Assembly (NCBI GenBank): GCA_964016885.1
Contig: OZ024740.1
Span: 88,226,001 to 88,290,000 of the forward strand
Reading direction: 5' to 3'
Length of the DNA stretch: 64,000 bases
DNA from: Eledone cirrhosa
Taxonomy: Eukaryota
Under the pieces are notes generated by a model. That model was not told the origin of the DNA, did not search any database, and saw only the letters and a list, made by a program, of their open reading frames with translations. Below are positions 45,476 through 48,660 of this stretch, in pieces (position 1 is the stretch's first letter; each line of letters begins with the position of its first letter). The position numbers and the translations under genes are program-made.

Positions 45476-46013
45476 CCACCCCCACCTCCCAGCCACTGCC
45501 ATGAAAGATTTAATTCTGTTTACAAGAAATTTTGACCAATCCTTTTTACAACTACAATCTTCCCATATAAAGAATTAGCCCTTGAAAAGTTCGGCTATTT
45601 ATTACCACGCTAAAAATTCTAATTTAGTCCAGAAATAGCCCTTGAAACGGCTTGAGCTCTGCCGTCGGGGTTAAACATTTTCTTGTATATATATATATAT
45701 ATATATATATATATATTGAAACAAAATGAAAACGAAATTTCATTTCTCACTCTTAGTATGGCACTTACTTAAATGTAAGTATGCATGTATACGTACATAC
45801 ATATATGTATACAGACGTACAGTAGCATGCACATATATATATATATATACATATATATATACATATGCATACAGGTACACATACATATATGCACGTATCA
45901 GTTTAGCGGCGCTAACGTCGCTTTGTTCGTTTGTAAACAAACTGAACAGCCTGAATTTATGCCATACGGTGTTAAGGCAACCACGTCACCTTTTTGTTCA
46001 ACACTGACACAGG

Positions 46014-46058
46014 AACGATGTACTAGTTTCAAGCTTGTTAGCTATCATCAGCACCGTT
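46014..46058 (-). ncRNA. Type I hammerhead ribozyme in the 466-bp unit (second minus-strand copy at 46480-46524)
   Basis: Reverse complement of the motif at 46820-46864. Confidence 0.88.
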
Positions 46059-46819
46059 TACCCATCTGCCAGATAGTTGAACGTTCGAAAGTATATACTT
46101 TCCTTATGAAAATTAACGGCTGAGCAGCCTAATTTGCATATTGAGTGAGTTAAATCGGTCAGGCATACCGAAAACGATAAATTGAAACAAAATGAAAACG
46201 AAATTTCATTTCTCACTCTTAGTATGGCACTTACTTAAATGTAAGTATGCATGTATACGTACATACATATATGTATACAGACGTACAGTAGCATGCACAT
46301 ATATATATATATATACATATATATATACATATGCATACAGGTACACATACATATATGCACGTATCAGTTTAGCGGCGCTAACGTCGCTTTGTTCGTTTGT
46401 AAACAAACTGAACAGCCTGAATTTATGCCATACGGTGTTAAGGCAACCACGTCACCTTTTTGTTCAACACTGACACAGGAACGATGTACTAGTTTCAAGC
46501 TTGTTAGCTATCATCAGCACCGTTTACCCATCTGCCAGATAGTTGAACGTTCGAAAGTATATACTTTCCTTATGAAAATTAACGGCTGAGCAGCCTAATT
46601 TGCATATTGAGTGAGTTAAATCGGTCAGGCATACCGAAAACGATAAATTGCCATACTAAGAGTGAGAAATGAAATTTCGTTTTCATTTTGTTTCAATTTA
46701 TCGTTTTCGGTATGCCTGACCGATTTAACTCACTCAATATGCAAATTAGGCTGCTCAGCCGTTAATTTTCATAAGGAAAGTATATACTTTCGAACGTTCA
46801 ACTATCTGGCAGATGGGTA

Positions 46820-46864
46820 AACGGTGCTGATGATAGCTAACAAGCTTGAAACTAGTACATCGTT
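46820..46864 (+). ncRNA. Type I hammerhead ribozyme in the 466-bp unit (also at 47286-47330, 47752-47796 and 48238-48282)
   Basis: AACGGTG-CTGATGA-TAGC(TAACAA)GCTT-GAAA-CTAG-TA-CATCGTT. 7-bp stem I, canonical core, palindromic minimal stem III, GUA cleavage predicted after 46857. Confidence 0.9.
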
Positions 46865-48525
46865 CCTGTGTCAGTGTTGAACAAAAAGGTGACGTGGTTG
46901 CCTTAACACCGTATGGCATAAATTCAGGCTGTTCAGTTTGTTTACAAACGAACAAAGCGACGTTAGCGCCGCTAAACTGATACGTGCATATATGTATGTG
47001 TACCTGTATGCATATGTATATATATATGTATATATATATATATATGTGCATGCTACTGTACGTCTGTATACATATATGTATGTACGTATACATGCATACT
47101 TACATTTAAGTAAGTGCCATACTAAGAGTGAGAAATGAAATTTCGTTTTCATTTTGTTTCAATTTATCGTTTTCGGTATGCCTGACCGATTTAACTCACT
47201 CAATATGCAAATTAGGCTGCTCAGCCGTTAATTTTCATAAGGAAAGTATATACTTTCGAACGTTCAACTATCTGGCAGATGGGTAAACGGTGCTGATGAT
47301 AGCTAACAAGCTTGAAACTAGTACATCGTTCCTGTGTCAGTGTTGAACAAAAAGGTGACGTGGTTGCCTTAACACAGTATGGCATAAATTCAGGCTGTTC
47401 AGTTTGTTTACAAACGAACAAAGCGACGTTAGCGCCGCTAAACTGATACGTGCATATATGTATGTGTACCTGTATGCATATGTATATATATATGTATATA
47501 TATATATATATGTGCATGCTACTGTACGTCTGTATACATATATGTATGTACGTATACATGCATACTTACATTTAAGTAAGTGCCATACTAAGAGTGAGAA
47601 ATGAAATTTCGTTTTCATTTTGTTTCAATTTATCGTTTTCGGTATGCCTGACCGATTTAACTCACTCAATATGCAAATTAGGCTGCTCAGCCGTTAATTT
47701 TCATAAGGAAAGTATATACTTTCGAACGTTCAACTATCTGGCAGATGGGTAAACGGTGCTGATGATAGCTAACAAGCTTGAAACTAGTACATCGTTCCTG
47801 TGTCAGTGTTGAACAAAAAGGTGACGTGGTTGCCTTAACACCGTATGGCATAAATTCAGGCTGTTCAGTTTGTTTACAAACGAACAAAGCGACGTTAGCG
47901 CCGCTAAACTGATACGTGCATATATGTATGTGTACCTGTATGCATATGTATATATATATGTATATATATATATATATATGTATATATATATATATATGTG
48001 CATGCTACTGTACGTCTGTATACATATATGTATGTACGTATACATGCATACTTACATTTAAGTAAGTGCCATACTAAGAGTGAGAAATGAAATTTCGTTT
48101 TCATTTTGTTTCAATTTATCGTTTTCGGTATGCCTGACCGATTTAACTCACTCAATATGCAAATTAGGCTGCTCAGCCGTTAATTTTCATAAGGAAAGTA
48201 TATACTTTCGAACGTTCAACTATCTGGCAGATGGGTAAACGGTGCTGATGATAGCTAACAAGCTTGAAACTAGTACATCGTTCCTGTGTCAGTGTTGAAC
48301 AAAAAGGTGACGTGGTTGCCTTAACACCGTATGGCATAAATTCAGGCTGTTCAGTTTGTTTACAAACGAACAAAGCGACGTTAGCGCCGCTAAACTGATA
48401 CGTGCATATATGTATGTGTACCTGTATGCATATGTATATATATATGTATATATATATATATATGTGCATGCTACTGTACGTCTGTATACATATATGTATG
48501 TACGTATACATGCATACTTACATTT

Positions 48526-48660
48526 ATATATATATATATATATATATATATATATATATATATATATATATATATATATGTATGTATGTGTGTGTGTGTG
48601 TGTGTGTGTGTGTGTGTGTGTGTTTGTGTGTGTGTGTGTGTGTGTGTTTGTGTGTGTGTG
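48526..48660. repeat. Compound (TA)n/(TG)n microsatellite
   Basis: Direct reading. Confidence 0.95.

Follow-up and report, generated by a model that had tools for sequence, protein, structure and literature searches.

The window analysed here is a stretch of 64,000 nucleotides from Eledone cirrhosa (assembly GCA_964016885.1, contig OZ024740.1, positions 88,226,001 to 88,290,000), and the positions given below are those within it. Between two (TA)n tracts the window carries an array of near-identical 466-bp units with a GC content of 36%, and six hammerhead cores lie within these units, the minus arm holding two and the plus arm four (Table 1). The 31-nt cores are located at 46827, 47293, 47759, and 48245 on the plus strand and at 46021 and 46487 on the minus strand. 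The cut-to-cut spacing is 466, 466, and 486 nt on the plus arm and 466 nt on the minus arm. A preliminary description of this DNA had counted six near-identical 466-bp units; the six cores and the 466-bp period were found, but the array spans approximately 2.0 + 4.0 unit lengths and contains only four complete cut-to-cut monomers. The differences between units are, as that description had stated, a single substitution (47376) and one 20-nt expansion of a microsatellite. When the unit is numbered from the base following the predicted GUA cut, an AT/GT microsatellite lies at approximately unit 126–200 and a tail segment at approximately unit 251–310. The claim that no real open reading frame is present also held, since no protein-coding frame was found over the 466-bp unit and its open frames are translations of the microsatellite. 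The fold z-score of the unit (−8.75) was set aside because the microsatellite hairpin inflates the value. Elsewhere in the window, a 35-kb satellite (positions 1–34918) has a 98-bp period with 94% matches, and a simple pattern finds no hammerhead core in it.

Table 1. Positions of the array, its ribozyme motifs, and the neighbouring Penelope-like elements (PLEs) in the window.
Feature	Positions	Strand
PLE-1, Hydra-clade-like, separate neighbouring insertion; 5'-truncated RT-thumb + GIY-YIG; tailed end ~43770; inverted short arm 45454–45685	43770..45685	-
Left (TA)n target tract, common to the array and the adjacent PLE-1 insertion	45686..45716	
Inverted arm, ~2.0 units; 5'-truncated at unit 303; terminates at the long 3' end (unit ~306, tailed)	45717..46650	-
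Minus-arm hammerhead motif; predicted cut between 46021 and 46020	46014..46058	-
Minus-arm hammerhead motif; predicted cut between 46487 and 46486	46480..46524	-
5'-to-5' inversion junction; arms overlap by 2 nt	46649..46650	
Direct arm, ~4.0 units; 5'-truncated at unit 258; terminates at the short 3' end (unit ~250, tailless)	46649..48526	+
Type I hammerhead motif 1, plus arm; predicted cut after 46857	46820..46864	+
Complete cut-to-cut monomer, 466 nt = predicted circle	46858..47323	+
Hammerhead motif 2, plus arm; predicted cut after 47323	47286..47330	+
Hammerhead motif 3, plus arm; predicted cut after 47789	47752..47796	+
Hammerhead motif 4, plus arm; predicted cut after 48275	48238..48282	+
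Right (TA)n target tract	48527..48580	
5'-truncated Neptune-like PLE (family C), candidate partner; hammerheads ~58765 (-), ~60048 (+); tail ~56–58 nt	58580..60310	+

The motif is a type I hammerhead with a stem I of 6–7 bp, the core CUGAUGA, a 4-bp stem II with a U.U pair at its base, GAAA, and ACUAGU; helix III consists of one pair and a palindromic CUAG loop. The ACUAGU segment cannot close as a 2-bp hairpin in the monomer, whereas it can pair with a second copy. The one-pair helix III with a palindromic tetraloop is shared with the axolotl HHR_Amex1, and the U.U at the base of helix II with HHR_Amex2 (PMC7229834). The term minimal hammerhead, used in the preliminary description, was abandoned: the helix sizes are canonical, unlike those of the minimal PLE hammerhead, which has a helix II of 7–8 bp, a helix I of 4–5 bp, and G10.1-C11.1 (Cervera 2014, PMC4209133). 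The covariance-model comparison that the same description had proposed did not bear out the assignment, as no hammerhead was called at the gathering score in the Rfam scan. In the E-value scan, the top hammerhead match was HH9 with 18.5 bits and an E-value of 0.93 (best among 150 of 170 matches listed). Rfam miRNA matches were rejected as microsatellite hairpins.

The ribozyme is under constraint. Between 27 arrays, 0 of 25 ribozyme-constrained columns were variable versus 101 of 365 elsewhere (p = 4e-4), a comparison that is partly circular because the arrays were mostly selected by the ribozyme. Among 30 loci selected by a non-ribozyme marker, the exact core was present in 25, and four carried one private change and one a deletion. 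Two of five older retrozyme copies beside PLEs had the exact core. The common core variants were N7, loop 2, and a G.U/U.G swap in stem I (267/274 copies scored). At many loci, the subfamilies differ by numerous compensatory changes in a separate 9-bp hairpin (unit ~100–120) whose ATAATA loop is fixed; the hairpin is weak in the window's young subfamily, where most of the loop is lost.

We searched the 3.0-Gb genome (1,796 contigs) for exact pattern matches, using reversed patterns as the control. The window-type core gave 11,700 matches and the core with loop 2 relaxed gave 25,179, against 0 reversed matches in each case, which excludes a chance occurrence of the motif. A further exact pattern for family size gave 19,307 matches, a marker private to the window's subfamily gave 4,466, and an older subfamily, approximately 75–80% alike over the unit, gave 6,027, again with 0 in the reversed controls. 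The typical unit across the family is 420–540 bp. With 25,179 core matches genome-wide, the array is not the single-locus artefact that the preliminary description had considered, and the genome-wide matches and young arrays show a young, mobile, dispersed non-LTR retrozyme family, in support of its interpretation. For the anatomy of the insertions, the first 100 core matches were grouped into 55 clusters over 64.7 Mb of one contig (C1), all of which were fetched.

The marks of non-LTR retrozymes (PMC7229834; review PMC7761336) that can be read from a genome were observed here: short tandem units of <50% GC, consecutive type I hammerheads, no coding capacity, and dispersal beside autonomous PLEs. 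The array is a real, young, and mobile new member of the known non-LTR retrozymes. The class and its link to PLEs are already in print (PMC7229834; bioRxiv 10.64898/2026.07.22.740005). Literature searches on cephalopod retrozymes, octopus hammerheads, and PLEs found no description of such a family, and related ones may sit in supplements; the main text of a paper on O. vulgaris repeats (PMC13282606) contains neither "hammerhead" nor "ribozyme". Some other loci of the family are taking a different course. A satellite-like array of the older subfamily has 47+ units at C1:51.77–51.79 Mb (L169–L171), two loci are independent dimer higher-order repeats (L167, L168), and another has a six-unit periodicity (L077); these are retrozyme insertions turning into satellites.

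The preliminary description had offered no interpretation of the 5'-to-5' junction between arms with different fixed ends into (TA)n. In the sampled loci, the arms stop at unit ~248–250 (short end) or ~305–310 (long end), adjoining (TA)n, and the gap between the two fixed 3' ends is ~57–60 nt (54–57 by tail measurement on natural copies). The 55 loci contain 36 head-to-head arm pairs, 27 resolved and nine with an unresolved end. A short end was paired with a long end in all 27 resolved pairs (20 + 7; binomial p = 1.5e-8), and the window obeys this rule, its minus arm having the long end and its plus arm the short one. Of the resolved pairs (L081–L135), 20 have the short end at the left and 7 have it at the right, which may be chance. 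Five tail-to-tail adjacencies were also counted in the 55 loci, and 17 of the 18 mixed-strand clusters in a hand count of the first 100 matches were arranged 5' to 5'. A TA-type run abuts 100 of 106 ends of the short or long class, some of the short calls being microsatellite-like noise. Both ends of the array lie within (TA)n, which bears on the target-site duplication (>4 bp when present). No LTR-internal-LTR layout was seen in any locus inspected.

An inverted truncated copy, a one-sided tail, and a bias toward (TA)n are marks of PLEs (Craig et al. 2021, PMC8557442), and the PLE tail corresponds to the distance between two internal starts of reverse transcription (Frangieh et al. 2024, PMC11167929). 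The autonomous PLEs of the same genome have ends of this kind too. The two fixed 3' ends on opposite arms, the 5'-to-5' inversion, and the (TA)n target thus indicate mobilisation by a PLE, and we conclude with considerable confidence that the retrozyme moved as a non-autonomous PLE parasite. A literature search of main texts, from which supplements may differ, found no account of this tail-and-inversion anatomy in retrozymes.

With respect to the template, the array is one very recent insertion of a non-coding repeat, for which a PLE reverse transcriptase probably copied a small RNA circle several times round. Tandem transcripts would self-cleave as dimers through the ACUAGU palindrome to give monomers, which a host ligase would close into circles. 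The RT/GIY-YIG protein of a PLE would nick (TA)n, reverse transcription would start internally at unit ~250 and ~310 and roll round the circle, and the two cDNAs would join 5' to 5'; some older arrays have been lengthened afterwards by DNA-level duplication. The 5' breakpoints are scattered, with 2 of 116 at unit 1–3 in a sample biased to intact ribozymes. In an unbiased count across the genome, 12 of the 5' ends lay at the ribozyme cut versus 13 at a control site 4 nt upstream, and nine of these 12 were true truncations. The lack of a pile-up of 5' ends at the cut indicates that copying runs through the cut and that cleaved linear monomers are not the templates. The conserved ribozyme, taken together with the absence of cut-ended templates, fits circles that were cut and ligated.

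Array haplotypes were compared for 12 of 15 newly taken loci and five earlier ones, 14 of which have at least two full units and three fewer. A private non-microsatellite variant occurred in every unit of 4 of the 14 young arrays (L073 and L248, in both arms; L088; L251), and array-wide microsatellite haplotypes were observed in L247, L249, and L242. A mutation of one genomic unit that recurs in all daughter units points to monomer-templated amplification, with homogeneous source arrays as the alternative. The private haplotypes and the lack of a pile-up at the cut favour copying round a ligated monomer circle, and an RNA circle is likely to have been the template. The alternating dimer arrays L167 and L168 were rejected as evidence of dimeric circles; their private variants lie in terminal pieces, as DNA-level duplication leaves them. 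Several observations count against this explanation: in the predicted circle, stem I forms only in part (pair probabilities 0.18–0.80), the monomer cannot make a 2-bp stem III and its stem II opens with U.U, and the autonomous PLE-1 also builds fourfold tandems. In frog dimers, cleavage was found in only one of nine tested (Li et al., bioRxiv 10.64898/2026.07.22.740005).

Read-through of the cut site fits equally well with a linear template, in which case the same non-autonomous PLE parasite would have been copied from an uncut linear multimeric transcript of homogeneous source arrays, the ribozyme being late or weak and circles by-products. The anole PLE uses uncut RNA as its main substrate and can insert in vitro without its hammerhead (Frangieh et al. 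2024, PMC11167929). Two arrays are mosaic (L244, with 446T in 3/17 units, and L246, with 94G in 5/8), and the variant 53A turns up in single units at two loci, the window and L073; this is the pattern that copying of linear multimers would give. Arrays also do grow by DNA-level duplication (L167, L168, and the 47+-unit array at C1:51.77 Mb). However, different private haplotypes fixed in both arms would require many separately homogenised sources. Moreover, an active ribozyme should leave 5' ends at the cut, where no enrichment was observed, yet the core is conserved. We consider a linear template unlikely on balance.

PLE protein matches were present in 13 of the 55 loci, with 30–98% identity to PLE-1, and those that were read have their own ends. 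The tail lengths of natural copies had a mode of 56 nt for family C (10/19 long ends) and were 80 nt for PLE-1, 85–86 nt for PLE-2, and 90–96 nt for PLE-3. The tail of the retrozyme matches that of family C and differs from those of the other three, but the RNA itself may determine how long the tail is. Family C, a Neptune-like PLE, has open frames of 1,098–1,261 aa, and its copies at loci far apart are up to 99.7% alike. PLE-1 is equally young, which counts against family C as the partner, and the unit shows no similarity above shuffles to the ends of family C either. We tentatively put forward the Neptune-like family C as a candidate autonomous partner of the retrozyme. The more specific proposition that the young arrays are rolling-circle fossils, made when a Neptune-like PLE protein copied a sequence-unrelated, ribozyme-made circle from two internal primings ~57 nt apart with the same circle serving both arms, is speculative and rather doubtful in its entirety. 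The clade labels of both PLEs, Hydra-like and Neptune-like, are based on motifs compared with PMC8557442 and on RT/GIY-YIG clusters, which family C resembles; the motif behind the Neptune label is the CX4CxxC linker, and this label is not tree-based. Pfam named neither PLE protein, and a PDB search with the PLE proteins gave nothing useful.

The adjacent PLE-1 was rejected as the parent or a co-inserted partner of the array. It is an older, complete insertion that has ends and an 80-nt tail of its own and shows no homology to the unit, and the two sit in the same TA tract as separate insertions. Several further observations were made on these PLEs. A first look gave 52,663 candidates for the PLE-1 family (also L061–L072), which has intact frames of 784–795 aa and a CxCX5C linker, and 38,471 for family C (window 58580–60310; L198–L211), which has a hammerhead in each arm. 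The PLE-1 hammerhead (~45577–45672), read by eye, is a U3-A8 variant, a type described in PMC4209133. At L064:7117–8001, the 5' end of a PLE-1 in fourfold tandem has given rise to a 55-bp tandem array (16+ copies, 99%). A stump of a third PLE family (window 55258–55630) consists of two head-to-head hammerhead-bearing ends with a palindromic TGCGCA stem III, one of them tailed. Ends of a fourth family lie at ~52570 and ~63000 of the window and in L085, L086, and L088; its hammerhead-like motif has an A at core position 4 and, like that of the retrozyme, a U.U at the base of stem II. At L104:2785, a retrozyme arm joins a 5'-truncated PLE-3 body in the same orientation without a TA tract, as a template switch or a deletion would leave it. 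This join and a second one between a unit and family C (L197) were set aside as template switches because a deletion between neighbours is possible.

The preliminary description had also raised the possibility that the unit is simply the pLTR of an autonomous PLE, and the unit matched no pLTR of the four PLE families compared. Aligned locally with six PLE end regions, each in both orientations, the unit scored nowhere clearly above shuffled sequence (best 4/100, a T-rich stretch); these comparisons covered the families lying in the fetched loci. A pLTR of an unsampled autonomous PLE, with the arrays as its extreme 5' truncations, would agree with the PLE-like behaviour of the array ends and with the Xenopus retrozymes, of which 24 of 57 families match known transposable elements, nearly all of them PLE ends (Li et al., bioRxiv 10.64898/2026.07.22.740005). 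Against this, no single consistent RT + GIY-YIG frame in register with the unit was found among the 55 loci, and it is the previous unit that stands upstream of each ribozyme. We judge this explanation very improbable, and descent of the unit from a pLTR is possible. Satellite-like DNA amplification or an assembly fold-back with an incidental ribozyme, to which the perfect inverted arms, AT-rich hairpins, and DNA-level growth of some long arrays might point, is the least credible explanation and is largely refuted already by the fixed, complementary 3' ends at thousands of dispersed loci, the same pattern in autonomous PLEs, and the conservation of the ribozyme columns while the remaining unit drifts.

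The animal non-LTR retrozymes of coral, mussel, and axolotl (Cervera and de la Pena 2020, PMC7229834) are likewise non-coding tandem units of <50% GC with one type I hammerhead each and likewise coexist with PLEs in the genome. The family described here differs from them in its 420–540 bp unit and internal microsatellite; published unit ranges are 150–450 bp (PMC7229834) and 51–972 bp (bioRxiv 10.64898/2026.07.22.740005). The inverted arm, the two fixed 3' ends, and the (TA)n targeting are not reported in the accessible text of PMC7229834. The same conclusion of PLE dependence was reached by Li, Clavereau, and Pollet (2026, bioRxiv 10.64898/2026.07.22.740005) for dispersed monomers, dimers, and multimers in 35 genomes (vertebrates, three insects, and one coral). 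Their case is built on co-occurrence and pLTR homology, whereas no pLTR homology is detectable here and the case is built on insertion anatomy. The EN+ PLEs (PMC8557442, PMC11167929) are similar in the inverted 5'-truncated copy, the one-sided tail, the (TA)n target, and the read-through of the hammerhead; the retrozyme has no open reading frame, a tail of ~57–60 nt rather than 30–40 nt, and multi-unit arms on both sides. The non-autonomous Chlamys elements, of which MRC1 is one (Craig et al. 2021, PMC8557442), are likewise PLE parasites that code for no protein, carry pLTRs, and insert as several copies head to tail, but they generally share 3' sequence with their autonomous family and most Chlamys are without hammerheads.

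The enzyme that spreads animal retrozymes, and whether the circle serves as a template, are posed as open questions in bioRxiv 10.64898/2026.07.22.740005, PMC7229834, and PMC7761336. The genome of E. cirrhosa offers a large family, a young subfamily with hardly any mutations, two mapped 3' ends from which the starts of reverse transcription can be predicted, and several young PLE families with intact frames, so that the in vitro PLE assay already in use could test the circle-template model directly. The value of the family lies in an unusually clear genomic signature of PLE mobilisation, with named candidate proteins, start sites, and templates. If its expression resembles that of the mussel and coral families, it would be a source of abundant unannotated circular RNA. 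If the reading of rolling-circle copying by a Neptune-like protein is true, this would be the first retrozyme–PLE pair to be identified and a natural example of a circular RNA being copied into an animal genome by target priming.
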